This document shows positions 6,522-36,808 of a DNA stretch of 64,000 nucleotides, piece by piece. The first letter of the stretch is position 1. Every line of letters starts with the position of its first letter. The stretch is from positions 625 to 64,624 of IMG/VR virus record IMGVR_UViG_3300019487_000032; one strand, given 5' to 3'. The translations under genes and the position numbers were made by a program. The notes beneath the pieces were generated by a model. The model saw only the letters and a list, made by a program, of their open reading frames with translations, was not told the DNA's origin and ran no database searches. This stretch comes from a virus.

Positions 6522-8309
6522 ATGAGAGCTGCTACGGCGGGCCAGGGAAGAGCAACCCTGGTCGCGCACCCGACACGACGCGACTGGTTTGCGATCCCAC
6601 CGGCATGGACGCCGGAAGTGTCGCGCGCGCCCGTGGTCCAGCTCGACGGACGCTGGGGTCCGCTCGTGCATCGATCGCACTTGCCGATCCTTGCGCAGAA
6701 CCATCCTGACGTCGAAAATTTTTTGTCCACGTACGGATCGCGGCAGCGACTAGATTCTGATCGCATCAGCGATCGAGCTGACTTCGACATGGGGACGACG
6801 GCCAACGGCTGGAATCTCCGTGGATATCAGCACGACGGCCGCGACTTCATCCGTGACCGTCGCGGCACGCTACTCGCCGATCAGATGCGGCTCGGCAAGA
6901 CGGCGCAGCTCGTCGCCTCACACGAACTCGACGATGGTCCGCTGATTGTCGTCGCGCCACTCGCGACTCGCGAGGTCTGGCTCGGCTGGTTCCGCCGTCG
7001 CTGGCCGGATATCCGCCCCCTGGTGCTGCAGGGCAAGACCGTCGCGTACATCAATCCGAAGACGAAGAAGCCGTCGACGCGGCGCAAGGATCGCGGCTAC
7101 GACCTGCTCGAAGGCGACTACTTCGACGAGACGATGCTCAAGAACGCGCAACTCGTGTTCATGAACTACGACATCCTCGCCGGCTGGAAGAACTTCGGCA
7201 ACCGGCGCATCGGCACGCTGATCTTCGACGAGATCCACCTGCTCTCGAACAAGGCGAGCCACCGCAGCAAGGCTGCGCTGTTCATGTCCACGGTCGCCGA
7301 CCGTGTTATCGGCGCGACCGGCACGCCCGTGTGGAACAAGCCCGCCGGGCTCTACACGACGCTCGCGAGTATCACGCCGGGCGCGTGGGGCAAATACTAC
7401 GAGTACGCCGCGCGCTACGCAGGTGGCCGTATGGGCGCGCACGGCTTCGTCGCCGACGGTACCTCGCACGAGGAAGAATTCCGCCTGCGCATGCAGGAAG
7501 TGATGATCCGACGCACGTGGCAGTCGGTCATCGGCCAGGTGCCGCCGATCACGCGCACCGTCGAGGTCGTCGAGATCACCGAGCGCCAAGCGTTCGCCGT
7601 CGAGAAAGAGGCCGAGCGCGTTCGCGATCACGCGCACAAGTCGACGGTGATCGGCGCGACCGCACGGTTCCGTCGGTTGCTCGCGCAGCTCAAGCTCGAA
7701 GGTTCCATCGACGCCGCCAAGCGTGTTCTCGACGGCGGTGAGCGCGTGATCGTCTGGACCTGGCACCGCGATATCGCGCTTCGAATTGAAGAAGCGCTCG
7801 CGAAGCAGGGTTACCCCGGCTTCGTTGTCTCGGGTGCTACGCATCAGGACATCCGCGAGACGATCTACAACCGGTGGCGCGCCCACCCGTGTTCGCCGTT
7901 GTGCATCACGCTCTCCGTCGGGCAGGTCGGCATCGACCTCAGCGCCGCACGCCAGGAAGTCTTCGCCGAGCTGGACTACACGCCCGCGATCGTCGCGCAG
8001 GCCGAGATGCGTCCGTTCAACGGACAGCAGCCCGTCGCCGCGACGTACGTGATCATCGATCACGACATCGAGCGGAAGATCCTCGAAGCGCTGCAGACCA
8101 AGTGCGAGTTGGCATTCCGGCTCGGTGTTCCTGCAGCCGAGAGCGCGATCGATGTCATCGCCAGCGGCTTCACCGGCATCGGCGGCGGCGATCTCACACC
8201 CGACGATCTCGATGCGCTTGCATCGGCCGTGCTCGCGGATCACCCCGAGGACGAGGACGACAACGACTACCACGGCACGCTGTGGAACTTCGACTGGGAG
8301 AAGGAATGA
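6522..8309 (+). CDS. SNF2-family (SF2) helicase
   Basis: LLADQMRLGKT, LIFDEIH, GATGTPVWN, VMIRRT, GQVGIDLSAA, QAEMR. Confidence 0.9.
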   Translation: MRAATAGQGRATLVAHPTRRDWFAIPPAWTPEVSRAPVVQLDGRWGPLVHRSHLPILAQNHPDVENFLSTYGSRQRLDSDRISDRADFDMGTTANGWNLRGYQHDGRDFIRDRRGTLLADQMRLGKTAQLVASHELDDGPLIVVAPLATREVWLGWFRRRWPDIRPLVLQGKTVAYINPKTKKPSTRRKDRGYDLLEGDYFDETMLKNAQLVFMNYDILAGWKNFGNRRIGTLIFDEIHLLSNKASHRSKAALFMSTVADRVIGATGTPVWNKPAGLYTTLASITPGAWGKYYEYAARYAGGRMGAHGFVADGTSHEEEFRLRMQEVMIRRTWQSVIGQVPPITRTVEVVEITERQAFAVEKEAERVRDHAHKSTVIGATARFRRLLAQLKLEGSIDAAKRVLDGGERVIVWTWHRDIALRIEEALAKQGYPGFVVSGATHQDIRETIYNRWRAHPCSPLCITLSVGQVGIDLSAARQEVFAELDYTPAIVAQAEMRPFNGQQPVAATYVIIDHDIERKILEALQTKCELAFRLGVPAAESAIDVIASGFTGIGGGDLTPDDLDALASAVLADHPEDEDDNDYHGTLWNFDWEKE

Positions 8310-9418
8310 CGAAAACAGCCGAGCTAGAAGACTTCGAGGTCGAGGGTGGCACACGCGAACCCAACATGATCGTGCCACCGCCGATCGCGCAGCCCGACTA
8401 CTTCACGATGAACGGAGATCCCAACCGCATCTACTTCGAGGATGCGATGAACGAGATCTTCAAGCACCACAACATCGAGAAGATGGGTGGCGCGTCGGGT
8501 CGCGGCTGGTCGAGTCACGCCACGTTTCAGCGTTGCCCGTACCTGTTCAAGCTGACGTACCTTGAAGGGCAGCGCGGCGCGCCTGCAACCGCGCTGGAGA
8601 CGGGCTCGGCGTTCCACACGTTCCTCGCGCTCCACTACACGTGGATGCTCAACGGCGATCTGACGCTGACGCCGTTCGTCGCGAAGGACTCGCTGCTCGC
8701 GATGAACGTTGATGCGAAGGCCGTCATCGAAGCGTTCCGGCTCTACGAAGCGTACGCCGATCGCTACGAAGGCGATTACCTGCATCCGATCGAGATGGAA
8801 GCGTGGGCGCAGGATCCCGACGGCAATACGTGCCGCTTCGATATGATCGCCGAGATCAAAGAAGCGCAGCCGGGTCTCATGCCCGGCGTGTACATCATCG
8901 AGCACAAGACCGCAGCACGTTTCACTGCCGACGCGCTCGAAGGTTGGCGCAACGACGGTGAAATCTTGGGCCAGATCATGGTCTGGAAGCGCGCCAAGCT
9001 CGACAAGAAGTACGGCAAGCTGCGCGGCACCATCGTCAATATCGTTGGCAAGCAGAAGGTCATCCAATTCCACCGCACGATCGTGCCCGCACAGAAGTGG
9101 CACGTAACGCAGCACATGGAAGACCTCAAGATGTGGTCCGCGCTACAGCAGATGTACGCGGCCACGGGAGTCTGGCCGAAGGCACGCGCGAACTGCGTGA
9201 CCAAGTTCGGCATGTGCAACTTTTTTGATCACTGTGCCGAGAACCAAAAGCTCGTGCCTATTCGCAAGCGTGAGTGGGCTCCGCAGGCTCGCCCAGCGAT
9301 CGCTGATCCGACTACGTCGCAAGAGGGACTTGCGATTACCGACCCGATCGGGCAAACGTCGTCAGCTCCGGCTGGTGGCGTGAGTGACAACGCAGAGAAC
9401 ACAGGGAGCAACGCATGA
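8306..9418 (+). CDS. Cas4/RecB-like PD-(D/E)XK exonuclease
   Basis: ATG overlaps the helicase stop (ATGA); SHATFQRCPY, GSAFH, RFDMI, IIEHKTA, C-terminal CVTKFGMCNFFDHC. Confidence 0.85.
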   Translation: MTKTAELEDFEVEGGTREPNMIVPPPIAQPDYFTMNGDPNRIYFEDAMNEIFKHHNIEKMGGASGRGWSSHATFQRCPYLFKLTYLEGQRGAPATALETGSAFHTFLALHYTWMLNGDLTLTPFVAKDSLLAMNVDAKAVIEAFRLYEAYADRYEGDYLHPIEMEAWAQDPDGNTCRFDMIAEIKEAQPGLMPGVYIIEHKTAARFTADALEGWRNDGEILGQIMVWKRAKLDKKYGKLRGTIVNIVGKQKVIQFHRTIVPAQKWHVTQHMEDLKMWSALQQMYAATGVWPKARANCVTKFGMCNFFDHCAENQKLVPIRKREWAPQARPAIADPTTSQEGLAITDPIGQTSSAPAGGVSDNAENTGSNA

Positions 9419-25097: not shown

Positions 25098-25113
25098 GAT
25101 CGCGGATGCGATC
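25098..25113. promoter_or_regulatory. GATCGC-N4-GCGATC palindrome (candidate operator)
   Basis: GATCGCGGATGCGATC in the divergent intergenic region; a degenerate copy lies at 25128-25143. Confidence 0.5.
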
Positions 25114-25206
25114 GTCTTGACGCCGAGGATCGCTCATGGGATCGTTCTCAACACAACCCCGAGAGAAGGCATGTCGCCAACTTCAGGGTCAACTTTCACA
25201 AAGGTC

Positions 25207-25437
25207 ATGAAGATGAACATCGAGAACCTCTCGGGTGATGGTCTCGGCAAGCGCCGCCGCCGTCGTCGTCGCCGCCTCGGTTCGAGCGGCGTTACCCTCG
25301 TCGGTCGCCGTCGGCGCCGGGCGAAGGGCTGCAGCGCCGCGGGCGTCAAGGCCAACGGTCGGCTCCGCAAGGGCTACCGCTGGGCCAAGGGCCGTGCGGG
25401 CTGCGCCGTCAAGGCGCGCCGCCGCCGCCGGAAGTAG
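25207..25437 (+). CDS. Protamine-like Arg-rich protein (probable DNA-condensing core protein)
   Basis: MKMNIENLSGDGLGKRRRRRRRRLGSSG...ARRRRRK; followed by a UUCG hairpin and a terminator. Confidence 0.7.
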   Translation: MKMNIENLSGDGLGKRRRRRRRRLGSSGVTLVGRRRRRAKGCSAAGVKANGRLRKGYRWAKGRAGCAVKARRRRRK

Positions 25438-25441
25438 GACC

Positions 25442-25501
25442 AGCGGCTTCGGCCGCTAGCCTGAGAGAAGGCCGCGTGCGATTTCGTACGCGGCCTTTTT
25501 T
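25442..25501 (+). terminator. cUUCGg hairpin followed by an intrinsic terminator
   Basis: AGCGGC-TTCG-GCCGCT (25442-25457); AAGGCCGCGTGCG-ATTT-CGTACGCGGCCTT plus T-run (25468-25501). Confidence 0.85.
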
Positions 25502-25526
25502 CGTCTACCCCATTCCCGAGGTCGCT

Positions 25527-25820
25527 ATGCCGCGTAAGCACCACCTCTCTCTGATCATCAAGGGCCCCGTCAAGAGCGCCAAGCGTGCCGCGTCACGCCA
25601 CGGCATCTCGACCGTGTCGTGTCGCGCCGTCTCCGGCGACGTGCAGTGCTACGCGCCGTGCAGTGGCAGCGCCACGCACAAGACAGCCGCGTGGTACAGC
25701 GAGCGCAGCCGCACGAAGGCTGGGCGCGGCTACCCGCCGGGCACGCTCCTCTACTACTCGGGGTCGTGCCCCACCGGACTCGGCAAGCGCAAGCGCCGCC
25801 GCTCGAAGCGGAGCCGCTGA
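25527..25820 (+). CDS. Basic Cys-containing protein with GLG/poly-Arg tail (paralog of 26875-27180)
   Basis: SLIIKGPVKS..DVQCY..PGTLLYYSGSCPTGLGKRKRRRSKRSR; GAGG RBS. Confidence 0.75.
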   Translation: MPRKHHLSLIIKGPVKSAKRAASRHGISTVSCRAVSGDVQCYAPCSGSATHKTAAWYSERSRTKAGRGYPPGTLLYYSGSCPTGLGKRKRRRSKRSR

Positions 25821-25822
25821 CC

Positions 25823-26005
25823 ATGCCGAAGCAACGCTGCCAGGACATGCTCGAAGATCTGCTCTACGACGCCGTGGATGCAGGCGCCGCGAACCGCGTC
25901 GTCAATCCACGGAAGATCGGGCATTTCGTCGACGTCTGCGTTCGTCCGAACGCGGCCGGGCTCGGTCGCCGTAAGCGTCGTGCGCGGCGCAGGGGTCGTC
26001 GGTGA
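25823..26005 (+). CDS. Small protein with GLG/poly-Arg tail
   Basis: Ends ..NAAGLGRRKRRARRRGRR. Confidence 0.7.
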   Translation: MPKQRCQDMLEDLLYDAVDAGAANRVVNPRKIGHFVDVCVRPNAAGLGRRKRRARRRGRR

Positions 26006-26235
26006 GCAAGCGGACCACGTTTGATCGTCTGCCTGTCGGCGCGTGCTTCGCGTACGACGCAGGCACGAAGCAAGCGACACGTCGCAAGGTCGACGCGTCC
26101 CACACGGCGCTCGTGCCTGCTACCAGCAAGCGCTCGTACCGTGTCGACGACATCGAGATGCGCGTGTTCGAGAAGGCCTGCCCAGTCAGCTTTGGTCGCC
26201 GTCGTAAGCGGCGCCGCAACAAGAGGAGTCGCTAG
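26002..26235 (+). CDS. Small protein with FG/poly-Arg tail
   Basis: GTGA overlap; ends ..CPVSFGRRRKRRRNKRSR. Confidence 0.7.
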   Translation: MSKRTTFDRLPVGACFAYDAGTKQATRRKVDASHTALVPATSKRSYRVDDIEMRVFEKACPVSFGRRRKRRRNKRSR

Positions 26236-26237
26236 TC

Positions 26238-26522
26238 ATGGCGAAGAGGAAATCATCCCGTCGTCGGCGCAAGAATCTCGGTTCGAGCGATCGGTTCGTC
26301 GTCAGCGGCCCCGCCACGTGGCGGCGCAGTGTCCATACGACCAAGAGCGCCGCCGTCGATCAGGCGAAGGCATGCTCGAAGCGGCACCCGAACGCGATCT
26401 GCAAGGTCACCGAAGGCCTGCCCGGCATGCAGCGCACGATCGCTGAGTGCAACCGTAGCGAGTGCTACGCGGTCAGCGGCGGCATGGGCAAGCGTCGGCG
26501 CCGTCGCAAGGCGAGGCGCTAG
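26238..26522 (+). CDS. Small protein with basic N-terminus plus NLG and a GMG/poly-Arg tail
   Basis: MAKRKSSRRRRKNLGSS ... SGGMGKRRRRRKARR; GAGGAG RBS. Confidence 0.75.
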   Translation: MAKRKSSRRRRKNLGSSDRFVVSGPATWRRSVHTTKSAAVDQAKACSKRHPNAICKVTEGLPGMQRTIAECNRSECYAVSGGMGKRRRRRKARR

Positions 26523-26524
26523 TC

Positions 26525-26875
26525 ATGGCGACGAAACGCAAGCGTCGTCGTTCGCGTCGCGGGCTCGGCGATTCTCCGGCGATCCACACCAAAAAGATGG
26601 CCGAAGCGTCGACGATGATCGGTTACTCGATCGCCGAAATGACCAACCGTGTACGCCACGGCAAGTGCGGCGCAGCCTCGGCCGTATACGCCGAGATGAT
26701 GATGGGCTACGGCGAGTACACCGCACACCAGAAGGCTGGCGGTACCTCGACGGCACCGCTGCACGAAAAGTTGGTCCACAAAGCGATCAACGAGTTCAAC
26801 GAGAAGTGCCTCGTCAACCGCGACTATCGCAGCGGGCTCGCGCGTCGTCGTCGTCGACGGAAAGCACGCCGCTAG
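26525..26875 (+). CDS. Small protein with basic N-terminus plus GLG and a GLA/poly-Arg tail
   Basis: MATKRKRRRSRRGLGDS ... RSGLARRRRRRKARR. Confidence 0.75.
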   Translation: MATKRKRRRSRRGLGDSPAIHTKKMAEASTMIGYSIAEMTNRVRHGKCGAASAVYAEMMMGYGEYTAHQKAGGTSTAPLHEKLVHKAINEFNEKCLVNRDYRSGLARRRRRRKARR

Positions 26876-27180
26876 TGGCGAAGCGCAAGCGTCGCGAGCA
26901 CGTCTCGCTGATTGCCAAAGGACCCAAGAAGAGCGTGCAGCGCGAAGCCGCTCGCTACGGCATCCCGATGTCGTCGTGCGTGACGCACGGCAAGGACGTG
27001 CAGTGTTTCACCGCCTGCACGCCATCGACACGCGACCGCCTCGATCAGTGGTTCCGGGCAAGCAAGCCCAACCGCTCGACGCAGCGGACGTGGAGTCGGC
27101 CCGGCGCACTACTGTACGTCGGCGGCTCATGCCTGAGCGCGCTCGGTGCGCGCTCGCGTCGGCGCCGGAAGGCACGGTAG
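26875..27180 (+). CDS. Basic Cys-containing protein with ALG/poly-Arg tail (paralog of 25527-25820)
   Basis: GTG start; SLIAKGPKKS..DVQCF..PGALLYVGGSCLSALGARSRRRRKAR. Confidence 0.75.
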   Translation: MAKRKRREHVSLIAKGPKKSVQREAARYGIPMSSCVTHGKDVQCFTACTPSTRDRLDQWFRASKPNRSTQRTWSRPGALLYVGGSCLSALGARSRRRRKAR

Positions 27181-27189
27181 AGTCCCGTC

Positions 27190-28479
27190 ATGGCCGCGAT
27201 CATCCCGCACCTCGAAGTCCCCAGCGACGTCACCGCGATCGAGCGTGCCTACGACATGTGCGTCGGCTCGTTGAGCGGACCGAACCTCGGCGAAGACCAC
27301 CACGCGTGCCCTGCACCGCAATCGGTCCTCGCGGACGCCCACGCTGGCCTACTCGGCATGGTGTTCGTGCGTGAGGCGGTATTCGACAGCCTAAAAGACC
27401 TGCAGTTCATCGTCCGACCCGGCAACGCTGAGGGCAAGGACACGAAGAAGGTCTTCCTCGTGCTCGACCGTCCGATCGGTCCGGGTCCGGCCTGGAACCC
27501 GGCGACGAATCCCGACGTCTCGCAATACAAGCTCTTGTCGTGGACGTCGAAGATGAACGCGCCGTCGTGGTCGCTGCCAGCTGGCGCACCGCAGATCGGC
27601 GGCGCGTGTCCGGGCGCCGTCGCGGGTCAGAGCGTTGTGCCCGAGAAGGCGCTTGATGCAGGCGCACGGCTCGTCAACATCGGTCTCGGTCGACCTGCGA
27701 ACACGCCGGTCAACCTCGCGCAAGCGATCTGCGAGCACTGCTACGCGACCGGTGGCCAGTACTCGACGGGCCAGGTGCAGTTCGCGCAGATCCTTCGCTT
27801 CCTGTGGGCGCGTCAGGCGATCAACTTCCACCTGCCGAACGGTTCGACAGCGTTCGTCGAGGCGATGGTCTATGCGATCGACAACGCCGACTACAAGCTC
27901 AACGGCGGCACGGTGCAAGGTGAAGGCGCCGAAGCGACGCAAGATCTTCCACCGGAGCCGACCGGTCGGCGATTCTTTCGCATCCACGACAGCGGTGACT
28001 TCTTCGAGGAAGAGTACCTGCGCCAGTGGAAGATGATCGCGGACCGGCTCCCGGACATCACGTTCTGGGCACCGTCACGCATCTGGGCGACGAGTTGGGG
28101 CACGGCTGCCGTCAACAAGATCAACCGTGACCCGCGCAACCTGATCATTCGTCCGAGCGCATACGAAGTGAACGAACCCGGCCCCGTCGATCTCGGTCCA
28201 GGCTGGGCCGGCCCGACGACGGTGATCGCGGTTTCGCAGAACCTCGGCATGACGCCCGAACGCGAGCGCTACGTCTACGAGCACGCACACCGCTTCCCGC
28301 CCAAGCTCACCGGTCCGGATCCGCGCTACACGTGGAACTGCCAGGCGTACGCCACCGACGACGCGAAGCACACGTGCCGCAAGGCTGTCGCGCCGCCCGG
28401 TCTCGGCGATGCGAACGGTAAGGGCTGTCGCGCGTGTTGGATCGCGCCGACGGAGATCGTCAACTACTCGCTCCACTGA
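27190..28479 (+). CDS. Phage GP88-like protein (radical-SAM-like Fe-S fold) with insertions
   Basis: SKMNAPSWSLPAG, ACPGA, CEHCYA.GG.Y, FRIHDSGDFF, FWAPSR, NLIIRPS, C-terminal C..C..CRACW. Confidence 0.7.
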   Translation: MAAIIPHLEVPSDVTAIERAYDMCVGSLSGPNLGEDHHACPAPQSVLADAHAGLLGMVFVREAVFDSLKDLQFIVRPGNAEGKDTKKVFLVLDRPIGPGPAWNPATNPDVSQYKLLSWTSKMNAPSWSLPAGAPQIGGACPGAVAGQSVVPEKALDAGARLVNIGLGRPANTPVNLAQAICEHCYATGGQYSTGQVQFAQILRFLWARQAINFHLPNGSTAFVEAMVYAIDNADYKLNGGTVQGEGAEATQDLPPEPTGRRFFRIHDSGDFFEEEYLRQWKMIADRLPDITFWAPSRIWATSWGTAAVNKINRDPRNLIIRPSAYEVNEPGPVDLGPGWAGPTTVIAVSQNLGMTPERERYVYEHAHRFPPKLTGPDPRYTWNCQAYATDDAKHTCRKAVAPPGLGDANGKGCRACWIAPTEIVNYSLH

Positions 28480-28487
28480 GGAACGTC

Positions 28488-28946
28488 ATGCCGAAGAAGA
28501 AGCCATCGACCGCAAAGGGCGTCGTCAGCAAAGACGACGTACCGTGCCTGCGCGTCGTCGTCGGCGGGAAGCCCGGCAAGACCGGACAGACCGACTCGAA
28601 GGCGTGTGCGATCGTCGGCGAGAGCCGTGGTGGCGTCAGCAAGTTCAACCTCGGCAAGAAGTACAACTCGACGAGCAAGACGGTCGCGACGCCCAAGAAC
28701 AACAAGCCGTGTCTCGGTGCGCTCAAGCGCACCGGCTGTCCGGTGCAACTCGCGTTCGAGAACGGGCAACCATTCCTGCGCTTCTGTACGACCGAGAAGC
28801 AACCCGGCTACCGTGTCAACGTCGACAACCCGGCCGAGGCCGTAGCGCAGGCAAGCGCCGCGTGCGCAACCTGGAAGGCCAAAGGCAAGTTCGAGTTTCC
28901 GCCGGGGACACCGCTCCGGGGCACCCCCAAGCGCAAACGCAAGTAA
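28488..28946 (+). CDS. Lys-rich, Cys-containing hypothetical protein
   Basis: GAGG RBS; basic termini (MPKKK..., ...PKRKRK). Confidence 0.7.
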   Translation: MPKKKPSTAKGVVSKDDVPCLRVVVGGKPGKTGQTDSKACAIVGESRGGVSKFNLGKKYNSTSKTVATPKNNKPCLGALKRTGCPVQLAFENGQPFLRFCTTEKQPGYRVNVDNPAEAVAQASAACATWKAKGKFEFPPGTPLRGTPKRKRK

Positions 28947-29528: not shown

Positions 29529-29915
29529 ATGGGAACGAAAGCAGGAGCACTTCTCTGGAACCGGCAGCACCTCACGCTGCTCGCCGGTCTGACAGAAGTC
29601 GATACAGGCATCCGCCAGGTCAATCAGGGATTCGGCAGCATGTCGCCGAACGAGCCGCCGATGGGCCTTCTCATCGCACCACCCGGACCGCCTGACGGCG
29701 CGTTGCCCGCGTCGCGCGTCATGGTCATTCCACAGGCGCCGACGACCACGTGGCTCAACATCACGCACAGCGAGCCGTACGTGAATCCGGCAACGGGAAC
29801 GATCTTCGTGACGTTCAACAACGCCGACAAGACGCCTGCCACCATCAACGTGCTGTTCTGGGATCCGCACTCGCTGGTCGGTCCCGGTGACGCTGACGCC
29901 TACAACGAGGTCTAA
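29529..29915 (+). CDS. GALLWNR-family beta-rich protein, paralog 1 (probable virion protein)
   Basis: KAGALLWNR, DTG, H.EPY, TI.V.F.N, INVLFWDPHSLVGPG.AD.YN. Confidence 0.8.
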   Translation: MGTKAGALLWNRQHLTLLAGLTEVDTGIRQVNQGFGSMSPNEPPMGLLIAPPGPPDGALPASRVMVIPQAPTTTWLNITHSEPYVNPATGTIFVTFNNADKTPATINVLFWDPHSLVGPGDADAYNEV

Positions 29916-29918
29916 GTC

Positions 29919-30299
29919 ATGAGCAAAAAAGCAGGCGCGCTTCTCTGGAACCGCATGCGCGTCGAGATCCTCGACGGCGTGATCGACATCGACACCGGGC
30001 TGACGCAGCCGAATCGCAGCTTCCCGGACTACTCGCCGAACGAGCCGTTCCTGGGCATCCCGGGCGCAGCACCGCCGGTTGCCGGTACGCCGCCCGCGTC
30101 GCGTATCCAGGTCATTCCGCTCGCACCGCTCGACGTCTGGGTGACCGTTACGCACGGCGAGCCCTACTTCAACACGACGACGAACACGATCCACGTGCAG
30201 TTCTCAAACGGCCTCACCACGTTCATCAACGTGCTGTTCTGGGACCCGCACTCGCTGATCGGTCCGGGCGACGCTGACACGTACAACGCAGCGCCGTAG
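29919..30299 (+). CDS. GALLWNR-family paralog 2
   Basis: Same conserved motifs as paralog 1. Confidence 0.8.
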   Translation: MSKKAGALLWNRMRVEILDGVIDIDTGLTQPNRSFPDYSPNEPFLGIPGAAPPVAGTPPASRIQVIPLAPLDVWVTVTHGEPYFNTTTNTIHVQFSNGLTTFINVLFWDPHSLIGPGDADTYNAAP

Positions 30300-30926: not shown

Positions 30927-31349
30927 GTGCTGACCCTTCAACGCGCCGACGGACTCGGGGACACGATCTCGGATCTCTCGTCGTTGCTCTCGAAGGGCGG
31001 GACGATTCTGCAGAAGGCTGGCCCGTACCTCGACACGGTGCTCGAAGTCGTACAGGACCCCGCACTGCCGCAGCTGGTCTCGCGCATCAAGACGCTCAAG
31101 GCGCTCGACGCCGGCACGTCCAAGCCGAGTGTACCGAGTGCGCCAGGCGCGCCCGCAAAGGCTGGCGTCGGCCTGAGTCGCACGTTGCCGTTGTGGGACG
31201 CCGCGATTTTCTACATGAGGTATCCGTGGGCCCCGTGGGTCATCGGTGCCGGCACGATCGTCGTGCTAGGTGGCATCGGCTTCGGTATCGGCCGCGCGAC
31301 CAAAAAGTGTCGTACGGGCATGGGACGCTCGTATCGTAGGAGACGCTGA
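30927..31349 (+). CDS. Membrane protein with N-terminal GLG and C-terminal GMG/Arg tail
   Basis: DGLGDT; transmembrane WVIGAGTIVVLGGIGFGIG; ends GMGRSYRRRR. Confidence 0.75.
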   Translation: MLTLQRADGLGDTISDLSSLLSKGGTILQKAGPYLDTVLEVVQDPALPQLVSRIKTLKALDAGTSKPSVPSAPGAPAKAGVGLSRTLPLWDAAIFYMRYPWAPWVIGAGTIVVLGGIGFGIGRATKKCRTGMGRSYRRRR

Positions 31350-31934: not shown

Positions 31935-32300
31935 ATGGGACTCAAAGCAGGCGCACTTCTCTGGAACCGGATGCGGGTGAACATCCCCGGTGCGGCGAAC
32001 GGTGGCGGACCTGGCATCCTTGATGTCGATACCGGCATCACGCAGGTGACCAAGTCGTTCGCAGACATGTCCAAGGACGAGCCCGATTTCGGCGATCCGT
32101 CGCGTATCCAGGTGATGCCGATGATGCCCATTTCAGCTTGGGACGTCATCACGCACGGCGAGCCCTACTTCGATCCCGCGACGGGGACGATCCACGTCGA
32201 GTTCCTCAACGCGTCGTTCGGCACGTCGATCATCAACGTGCTGTTCTGGAACCCGCACTCGCTTGTGGGTCCGGGCGAAGCGGACCCGTACAACGACTGA
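31935..32300 (+). CDS. GALLWNR-family paralog 3
   Basis: MGLKAGALLWNR...HGEPYF...INVLFWNPHSLVGPGEADPYN. Confidence 0.8.
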   Translation: MGLKAGALLWNRMRVNIPGAANGGGPGILDVDTGITQVTKSFADMSKDEPDFGDPSRIQVMPMMPISAWDVITHGEPYFDPATGTIHVEFLNASFGTSIINVLFWNPHSLVGPGEADPYND

Positions 32301-36217: not shown

Positions 36218-36808
36218 ATGCTCGCAGCCGCCTACCTCGGTGACGTCGAACCGTACCAGCAGATCGAGAAGTACAGCTGTGGCGCGGCCACGCTCAAGGC
36301 CGTGCTCGGTCACTGGAACGAGCGTGTTCCCGAGCGGAAACTGATCAAGGAGATCGGCATCGATCCCGAGAACGGTTCGACGGCGCTCCAGGTTGCCGCT
36401 GCGGCACGCGCTCGCGGCTACAACGCCAACGTGAAGCTGTTCGGCTCGATCGCCGAGCTGGGTCGCGTCACGTCGCAAGACACGCCAGTCATCCTCGCGA
36501 TCCAGAGCTTCACGCGGCCGAACCAGGGCCACTTCGTCGTCGCGACCGAGGTCAAGCCGACCGTCGTCGAGATCATGGATCCAAACGTCAAGGGCAACCG
36601 CCGCACGCTCACGCACCGCGAGCTGGACAAGCGCTGGAAGTTCCGCGATCGCGTCGGCGTGATCATCACGCCCAAGAACAAGGCGGCGCAGTTCGGCGGC
36701 ACGGCGTGGACCTCGCGCTCGACGTCGTTCGCCCTCGCGGGCGCGACTCTGGCTATCGCTGGCGCGGTGATCGGCGTCGTGATCTGGCGCCGCAAGCGCG
36801 CAGCCTAG
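36218..36808 (+). CDS. C39-like (papain-fold) cysteine peptidase with C-terminal transmembrane anchor
   Basis: QQIEKYSCGAATL, GHFVV, IMDP; transmembrane FALAGATLAIAGAVIGVVIW then RRKR; TACGCT-N6-ATG start. Confidence 0.85.
   Translation: MLAAAYLGDVEPYQQIEKYSCGAATLKAVLGHWNERVPERKLIKEIGIDPENGSTALQVAAAARARGYNANVKLFGSIAELGRVTSQDTPVILAIQSFTRPNQGHFVVATEVKPTVVEIMDPNVKGNRRTLTHRELDKRWKFRDRVGVIITPKNKAAQFGGTAWTSRSTSFALAGATLAIAGAVIGVVIWRRKRAA

Follow-up and report, generated by a model that had tools for sequence, protein, structure and literature searches.

A transferable oligo-arginine and hydrophobic-glycine tag on an array of viral miniproteins, possibly processed by a C39 peptidase

Introduction

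Why would a virus attach the same short junction, a hydrophobic residue and a glycine next to a run of arginines, to a row of small proteins with otherwise different bodies? The question is raised by seven consecutive genes, here named P1–P7, on the plus strand at positions 25207–27180 of a 64,000-nucleotide stretch of viral DNA (the window), which represents nearly the whole of the 64,848-bp IMG/VR record IMGVR_UViG_3300019487_000032. The record originates from a cave metagenome and is estimated to be about 53% complete. An earlier note, made from the sequence alone, had proposed that the seven proteins are virion core proteins matured at the junction by a C39 peptidase encoded at 36218–36808. 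Our data support the tag as a shared, selected, and transferable module. The function that we tentatively favor, at somewhat short of an even chance, is a cleavable address, in which the hydrophobic-Gly junction would be a C39 site and the poly-Arg run a polyanion-binding handle.

The tag is selected at the protein level

All seven open reading frames (ORFs) of the earlier note, and the seven junctions quoted in it, are present in the array. In its C-type form, the tag follows the protein body as [small]-[L/F/M/V/I]-G-(K/R)8-14-stop, with Ala in place of Gly in P6. In its N-type form, found in P5, P6, and many orthologues, it precedes the body as Met-Ala-(K/R)n-x(0-2)-[L/F]-G-[S/D]-S. The C-type tags read TGLG-KRKRRRSKRSR in P2 (25527–25820, 97 amino acids, aa), AGLG-RRKRRARRRGRR in P3 (25823–26005, 60 aa), and VSFG-RRRKRRRNKRSR in P4 (26002–26235, 77 aa). 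P5 (26238–26522, 94 aa) carries the N-type tag MAKRKSSRRRRKNLG-SS together with the C-type tag SGGMG-KRRRRRKARR, and P6 (26525–26875, 116 aa) likewise combines MATKRKRRRSRRGLG-DS with SGLA-RRRRRRKARR. P7 (26875–27180, 101 aa) begins at a GTG start codon and ends in a basic tail. Each of the seven proteins has 16–30 Lys/Arg residues, and acidic residues are scarce.

P1 (25207–25437, 76 aa) unites both tag forms around a single run (leader-GDGLG-K-R8-LG-SSG). The GLG-poly-Arg junction noted earlier for P1 exists, but it follows an N-terminal leader rather than closing the protein: a 14-aa neutral leader ending in GDGLG is succeeded by a 9-residue Lys/Arg run, LG-SS, more Arg runs, and a poly-Arg C-terminus. 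With 30 Lys/Arg residues (39%) and two Cys, P1 is protamine-like, and its composition satisfies the mark of more than about 35% Arg/Lys for protamine-like viral proteins. Its orthologues in all relatives retain the leader and the hydrophobic-Gly residues flanking the basic run.

The sharing of the tag is non-random. The array holds eight C-type and three N-type motif matches compared with one of each among 83 other genes (17,899 aa), and composition-preserving shuffles of the seven proteins equaled the observed counts in 0 of 2000 trials for the C-type and 3 of 2000 for the N-type. Tails with at least nine basic residues among the last 12 occur only in the array. The gene list of the window was crude, with P1, P3, P4, and P7 added by hand. 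At the 64% G+C of the window, many spurious Arg-rich ORFs arise in alternative frames, and the basic ends could in principle stem from wrong-frame reading of GC-rich DNA or from repeated regulatory DNA at gene junctions. Such an artefact is refuted by the G+C content at third codon positions (GC3, 0.74–0.90), the ratio of nonsynonymous to synonymous substitution rates against orthologues (dN/dS, 0.12–0.56), orthologues in at least seven genomes, synonymous Arg variation, and low DNA similarity; we regard its chance as negligible. GC3 and dN/dS establish the seven frames as genuinely coding. A DNA repeat as the source of the tag is ruled out by the mixed Arg codons of the tails (CGC 22, CGT 14, CGG 10, AGG 3) and by the junction DNA alignment, which reaches only 59% column identity. 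The variable Arg codons, dN/dS, the rarity of the motif elsewhere, and its conservation in orthologues demonstrate selection of the tag at the protein level.

The bodies were described earlier as mostly unrelated. This description holds except for P2 and P7, which are paralogues (42% identity, E 1e-20) and the sole related pair; with the tails trimmed, the remaining pairs never reach E < 1. None of the seven proteins has a significant match in Pfam or PHROG. The AlphaFold2 (AF2) model of P7, with a mean predicted local distance difference test score (pLDDT) of 74, has a ferredoxin-like beta-alpha-beta-beta-alpha-beta body (residues 9–84), for which Foldseek returned only generic ferredoxin-like matches (PII, ACT, acylphosphatase). 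The body is followed by a disordered linker containing L90-G91, with pLDDT below 50 from residue 88 onward. Cys counts are even throughout (2, 4, 2, 2, 4, 2, and 4 in P1–P7), and all four Cys are invariant in the P2/P7 family, compatible with disulfides or a zinc site.

Conservation and recombination at the junction

Relatives of the window comprised eight IMG/VR contigs of 30–221 kb, retrieved with the C39 gene and the GP88 gene (PF17338) that directly follows the array, and a 151-kb NCBI contig (L027). Orthologues of P1–P7 from at least seven related viral contigs keep the tag. The junctions read S-F-G, N-F-G, G-V-G, and L-L-G in the P4 family; G-M-G, G-V-G, G-L-G, A-L-G, and G-F-G in the P5 family; G-L-G and N-L-G in the P2 family; G-L-G in the P3 family; G-L-A, G-L-G, V-S-G, A-I-G, and V-D-G in the P6 family; and A-L-G-A, L-D-G-A, and L-D-G-T in the P7 family, for which the homologue search found seven close relatives only. 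In the alignment of the P2/P7 family (38–96% identity), L90 and G91 are invariant yet lie within the stretch modelled as disordered, suggesting that they form a linear motif and not a part of the fold.

Among the relatives, unrelated domains are fused and split precisely at the tag, and the fusions preserve the hydrophobic-Gly pair. A small, beta-rich, SH3-like domain (domain X) is fused to P7 in L003/L008 via ...S-R-G-L-G-, to P6 in L006 via ...K-R-S-G-L-G-S-S, and to P5 in L027 via ...R-T-G-R-M-L-G-, and in G003 it is free-standing and bears an N-type tag. In L004, K-R-R-R-R-G-A-F-G-S-S links a helical module to P5, and in L007, P4 and P5 are fused with deletion of the basic run. The basic/hydrophobic-Gly linker is thus a joint where modules recombine. 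Cutting of the linker would give identical products from fused and from split genes, and recombination there would then be easily tolerated.

The array is compact, lying between a divergent HNH gene and the GP88 gene. Stops and starts overlap or are 2–3 nt apart with the sole exception of a 90-nt gap 3' of P1. This gap contains a strong hairpin of about 19 bp followed by a U6 run (25467–25503, plus strand), directly 3' of P1. The 91-nt stretch that holds it (25436–25526) has a folding energy of −49.9 kcal/mol (z −6.0), and none of 200 shuffles was as stable; a consensus terminator scan did not detect the hairpin. The hairpin resembles an intrinsic terminator separating P1 from P2–P7, and because of the hairpin and U run, P1 is probably its own short transcription unit.

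A membrane-anchored C39 peptidase

The cysteine peptidase encoded at 36218–36808 (plus strand, 196 aa) is a stand-alone protein. It matches PF03412 with 57 bits (cut-off 22; E 2.3e-15) and PF13529 with 37.5 bits. The catalytic residues Cys21, His105, and Asp121 and the oxyanion residue Gln15 are invariant across a 10-homologue alignment, and the closest solved structure is LahT150 (6MPZ, E 1e-4), with which the Q...C-G-A-A block aligns. This confirms the C39 peptidase of the earlier note, whose catalytic triad is complete. The domain is followed by the linker K-N-K-A-A-Q-F-G-G, a single transmembrane (TM) helix, and RRKRAA. Scanned with Pfam and PHROG, the larger ORFs of the window include no ATP-binding cassette (ABC) exporter of the peptidase-containing transporter type (PCAT, also AMS) to accompany the enzyme.

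The linker preceding the TM helix is variable but keeps the pattern basic-x-x-[F/L]-G or [F/L]-A, followed by G/E/D/S/A/T, in homologues down to 37% identity. This pattern is that of the N-type tag and suggests that the enzyme recognizes or releases itself. The earlier note had listed recurrences of the motif at both edges of the C39 domain and in a membrane protein at 30927–31349 (plus strand, 140 aa), whose N-terminus ends in DGLG-D and whose C-terminus reads TGMG-RSYRRRR. The recurrence in the membrane protein and the QFGG before the TM anchor are real and conserved in relatives. In YLGD at the domain start, Leu is invariant and Gly nearly so, and both are retained even in homologues that begin with Met-Leu-Gly; we read this motif as a structural part of the C39 fold that is unlikely to be cleaved.

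A second viral C39 subfamily (36–40% identical) was observed in IMG/VR contigs L039–L046 (21–210 kb). There, the peptidase is C-terminal in proteins of about 180–350 aa that lack a TM anchor, a Leu-Gly start, and neighbors with poly-Arg tails.

Predicted complex of the peptidase with P5

A controlled complex prediction paired residues 1–161, the C39 domain, with full-length P5, the array protein covered, and was accompanied by three controls. The pair scored 0.81 compared with 0.32 for the best control, and the prediction passed a mark that 51 of 78 solved complexes and 2 of 108 mismatched pairs also reach. Separate runs share at least 63% of contacts, and the partner pLDDT is at least 61. The predicted interface of P5 comprises residues 54, 66–70, 72, 75, and 77–85 (YAVSGGMGK), with 77–85 in the groove and S80/G81 in contact with Cys21, Gly22, Gly104, His105, and Phe106. 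The model thereby supports occupation of the C39 active site by the P5 junction. The proposal that the peptidase cuts at [LFM]G is matched by this placement; however, the model centers on S80/G81, and the scissile bond may follow GG, two residues upstream of the site proposed earlier.

A doublet of two small residues lies two residues upstream of the hydrophobic-Gly pair in the P5 and P3 families only. Within the P5 family all doublets are of this kind (GG, GG, AG, GG, GA, SG), unlike in the P4, P2, and P6 families. Because the doublet is confined to some families, the general feature is the hydrophobic-Gly pair.

Interpretation and alternatives

As a cleavable address, the tag would work as follows. 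The co-conserved, membrane-anchored C39 (double-glycine-type) peptidase would process the hydrophobic-Gly junctions, and the cut would separate the folded bodies from oligo-arginine peptides. P1 would shed its 14-aa leader to become a protamine-like polycation of about 60 aa. The poly-Arg run would most simply address a polyanion, be it a nucleic acid (DNA or RNA) or the acidic inner face of the membrane that anchors the protease. The products might end as co-packaged or DNA-condensing proteins or as host-directed effectors. The best candidate for a DNA condenser is P1, given its 39% of basic residues, two Cys, short conserved leader, and own terminator. The C39 gene is present in all six hydrophobic-Gly-tag genomes that reach that far (the window, G001, G002/G008, G004, G009, and L027), as the earlier note expected of related contigs. 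The expectation fails in G003, a complete genome of 137,914 bp with direct terminal repeats, whose GP88 is 76% identical and is preceded by an array of poly-Arg-tailed ORFs. In this C39-less genome, the junctions have mostly drifted from hydrophobic-Gly to L-x-G-x (L-S-G-A twice, L-H-G-P, L-T-G-A-S, L-D-G, and one G-L-G), and the P2 orthologue has an insertion at the junction; we count the drift in favor of a cleavable address.

Several points weigh against cleavage by C39. No C39 gene was found in G003 with Pfam PF03412, PF13529, or a custom profile (best E 0.31), nor was another protease found near its array. No poly-Arg-tailed ORFs occur within up to 10 kb of distant viral C39 homologues (36–45% identical), most of which have no TM anchor; L038 retains one, and some of these contigs are short. 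The co-occurrence is also phylogenetically confounded, comparing essentially one clade with one outlier, so that the link between tag and peptidase is consistent but not strict in either direction, with few independent events. C39 substrates typically end in GG, GA, or GS, and a bulky P2 residue, as at the array junctions, is atypical. The passing prediction may partly be model memory of solved complexes of C39 with double-glycine leaders, and the predicted pose is compatible with either the GG↓MG or the MG↓K bond without choosing between them, as P5 has a GG two residues before its M-G. Moreover, the last codons of several tails (AAG AGG AGT; AAG GCG AGG; AAG CGG AGC) form a purine-rich ribosome-binding site for the next gene, with the final codons of P4 (AAG AGG AGT) serving as a Shine-Dalgarno-like site for P5. 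This role may explain the K-R-S-R and K-A-R-R endings but leaves the CGN-rich core of the tails unexplained.

The closest competing explanation is that the tails stay on. The array would then encode small accessory proteins, for instance condensate clients or binders of RNA or the nucleoid, whose poly-Arg runs are permanent arms for DNA, RNA, or membrane. The hydrophobic-Gly pair would do no more than cap a domain or form a hinge, and C39 would have its substrates elsewhere. Tails without C39 in G003, tails modelled as disordered, and C39 homologues elsewhere without such tags all fit this picture. It also fits that G006 (complete, 82.7 kb) and L029, which have nothing but the GP88 module in common with the window, carry very basic Cys-rich miniproteins with neither tag nor C39 (in L029, within 10 kb on either side of GP88). 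A mere arm would hardly account for a hydrophobic-Gly pair kept on both sides of the basic run, in unrelated bodies, invariant within a disordered linker, and present in the linker of the peptidase itself, or for the passing docking prediction and the location of fusion and fission at the tag. We consider permanent tails rather unlikely, at clearly less than the chance given to a cleavable address.

The full model of the earlier note makes the array proteins virion core proteins, poly-Arg a packaging address, and C39 a virion-anchored protease maturing the core as in adenovirus, poxvirus, and African swine fever virus, a scheme that would differ from the prohead processing of tailed phages. 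The evidence for cleavage applies equally to this model. The protamine-like P1, with its terminator-like hairpin compatible with a separate and possibly high-output unit, also agrees with it, as do the Gly sites flanking basic peptides as in adenovirus pre-Mu. Yet nothing places the array proteins or the protease in a virion, and no capsid, portal, terminase, or internal-membrane gene was recognized in the window or its complete relatives. Terminase (PF03237, PF17289, PF03354, PF04466) and HK97 capsid (PF05065) matches were absent from the record of the window and from up to six related records, which took in a 221-kb record rated 100% complete as well as two terminal-repeat genomes (138 and 83 kb). 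When the largest uncharacterized proteins of G003 and G002 were scanned with PHROG and Pfam, the matches were RIIA/RIIB-like, VWA, glycosyltransferase, and primase, and no structural protein emerged. A rough scan of G002 (221 kb), whose GC3 filter dropped most array ORFs, showed tags within the array region and on some further small ORFs, with none on large proteins. Taken as a whole, the virion-core model is quite unlikely. A related and broader proposal, which we judge unlikely, is that a lineage of large (83–221 kb) double-stranded DNA viruses, in which no terminase or HK97 capsid was found, uses its membrane-anchored C39 enzyme to cut the miniprotein array at hydrophobic-Gly joints and to free domains and oligo-Arg peptides, a form of "protamine by proteolysis" and cargo addressing. 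Such a system would parallel adenovirus core maturation or the capsid-targeting tag of T4 with other components.

Alternatively, P1, with or without the others, might be the precursor of a cationic peptide similar to bacteriocins or other ribosomally synthesized and post-translationally modified peptides (RiPPs). GP88 would modify it, C39 would trim the leader, and the product would act on membranes for lysis or competition. A leader of 14 aa that ends in G-D-G-L-G and precedes a cationic, two-Cys core, the canonical role of C39 as a leader peptidase, and the nearby SLT transglycosylases and small membrane proteins are in line with this idea. The structural matches of GP88 could also be read in this way. 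The AF2 model of GP88 is confident (pLDDT 84, predicted template modelling score 0.87). Foldseek found nothing for it in the PDB, and an exhaustive structural scan placed partial TIM barrels of radical S-adenosylmethionine (SAM) enzymes at the top with Z-scores of 4.3–6.1, including the RiPP maturases SuiB (5.0), ChlB (5.0), SkfB, and PqqE as well as spore photoproduct lyase (6.1), QueE (5.3), PFL-AE, and viperin. These Z-scores are all below 8 and hence weak, and the invariant Cys of GP88 (C140, C181-x2-C184, C384, C396, C413-x2-C416) do not have the canonical CxxxCxxC spacing, so that the radical-SAM resemblance of the model is only a lead. GP88 is also widespread in phages without such arrays. 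Furthermore, the logic would be inverted, with conservation of the tag and "leaders" that are folded domains unrelated to one another: P1 alone has a short conserved leader, the usual 15–30 aa leader ending in GG with a variable core is not matched, and the scans of the larger ORFs revealed no ABC transporter. A RiPP-like origin is therefore very improbable.

Relation to known systems

The peptidase belongs to the same family as the C39 domains of PCAT/AMS transporters (LahT150 in 6MPZ, ComA, PCAT1), sharing the motifs Q...C-G-A-A, G-H-F-V-V, and M-D-P. In those systems, P-side residues ending in Gly specify the cut, and the model places the P5 junction in the groove in the manner of such a leader. 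The enzyme of the window, in contrast, is viral and stand-alone, has one C-terminal TM helix and no ABC transporter, and would accept a bulky hydrophobic P2 residue at the putative sites instead of Gly/Ala/Ser. A whole folded miniprotein would take the place of the "leader", and an oligo-arginine tail that of the "cargo".

The internal proteins of phage T4 (IPI-III, from a hyperplastic locus) carry an N-terminal 10-residue capsid targeting sequence that is cut at L/I-x-E by the prohead serine protease gp21, and their location in the virion is proven. The P1–P7 array resembles this system as a variable locus of unrelated small proteins with one short terminal tag and module swaps among relatives. 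The tag is a protease site in T4 and a putative C39 site in the array. Unlike the T4 sequence, the array tag consists of poly-Arg and hydrophobic-Gly at either end, and the protease would be a C39 cysteine peptidase; no prohead protease was recognized in the scans of the window and its relatives.

Adenovirus pVII and pre-Mu are Arg-rich, DNA-condensing proteins cut by adenain, a clan CE (C5) protease, at (M/I/L)-x-G-x↓G or (M/I/L)-x-G-G↓x. The array similarly has Arg-rich peptides with Leu/Gly-based sites on their flanks, P1 plus its leader looks like a pre-protamine, and the L-x-G-x junctions of G003 fit the adenain consensus. The peptidase is C39 and not C5, however, the realm and host differ, and cleavage and DNA binding are putative in the array. 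The viral protamine-like proteins P6.9 of baculovirus and P64 of ascovirus are small, more than 35% basic, and Cys-containing (PMC12159748, PMC6163548), as is P1. These are single dedicated proteins of eukaryotic viruses, whereas in the array the charge is a portable tag on seven bodies.

We found no precedent in the literature for poly-Arg-tagged phage proteins or phage C39 maturation proteases, and the Pfam, PHROG, and isolate-phage searches gave no match describing the tag or such a system. With the replication block, GP88, and the HerA-like ATPase as BLAST queries, the isolate phages offered no close match. The pieces are known, namely, C39 peptidases, Gly-based viral maturation sites, protamine-like tails, and tagged internal proteins; their combination is new. 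Provided that the tag is indeed a cleavable address, about 12–15 residues would suffice as a compact, portable signal that delivers arbitrary small proteins to a polyanion or a protease and can then be removed. The known range of C39 peptidases would grow beyond bacteriocin export to include the processing of viral proteins, with a new P2 specificity, and the tag would open a way into a viral lineage in which profile searches fail to see the morphogenesis genes. Among the proteins of the array, the variable cargo domains are candidate host-takeover or anti-defence effectors.

Genome setting and neighboring genes

Besides the C39 peptidase, the window encodes ThyX, two SNF2 helicases, ribonucleotide reductase, a HerA/FtsK-like ATPase, a PolA-UDG fusion, an XPD-like helicase, Dam, two SLT transglycosylases, and a MoxR/DUF2201 pair. 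The palindrome GATCGC-N4-GCGATC occurs in two copies, one exact and one with one mismatch, at 25098–25143 in the divergent region 5' of P1. With at most one mismatch, it has 24 matches in the window compared with 1.33 expected, including those at 25098, 28950, 29448, 30894, 31857, 33906, 60802, and 61067. Exact copies are intergenic and lie 5' of P1 and of several genes of the 28–34 kb block, suggesting a candidate operator common to P1 and these genes and one regulon including the array.

Three beta-rich paralogues of about 125 aa (29529–29915, 29919–30299, and 31935–32300) lie beside membrane proteins and are kept in all relatives. No family or fold match was obtained for them, and ESM Atlas was uninformative for the 126-aa family at 29919–30299 (model pLDDT 0.34). 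In G003, RIIA-like (HATPase_c_3) and RIIB-like genes are adjacent (L013 12699–16247).

GP88 (27190–28479, plus strand, 429 aa) is always directly downstream of the array and is conserved far better than the array itself (74–84% identity). Its family is large, with 285 matches, two of the homologues having inteins; a literature search on PF17338 found nothing. It is followed by a basic, Cys-rich protein ending in KRKRK (28488–28946, plus strand, 152 aa), and GP88 with a basic Cys-rich protein of about 150 aa forms a module also found in otherwise unrelated viruses. Very basic small proteins near distant GP88 genes (L005 3915–4301, L021 11684–12318, and L029 12178–12354) share a repeated knuckle, C-K-[F/Y/H]-G-V-[A/N/S]-K-x-x-G-x-C-L-K, to which the central part of P1 may be related. 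Near the GP88 module in G003 are a 2-oxoglutarate (2OG)-Fe(II) oxygenase resembling prolyl hydroxylases and a dual-specificity phosphatase (L005 12254–12925 and 14562–15209), and L027 has a weak 2OG-oxygenase match at 8146–8649; these are possible protein-modifying enzymes in the vicinity of basic proteins.

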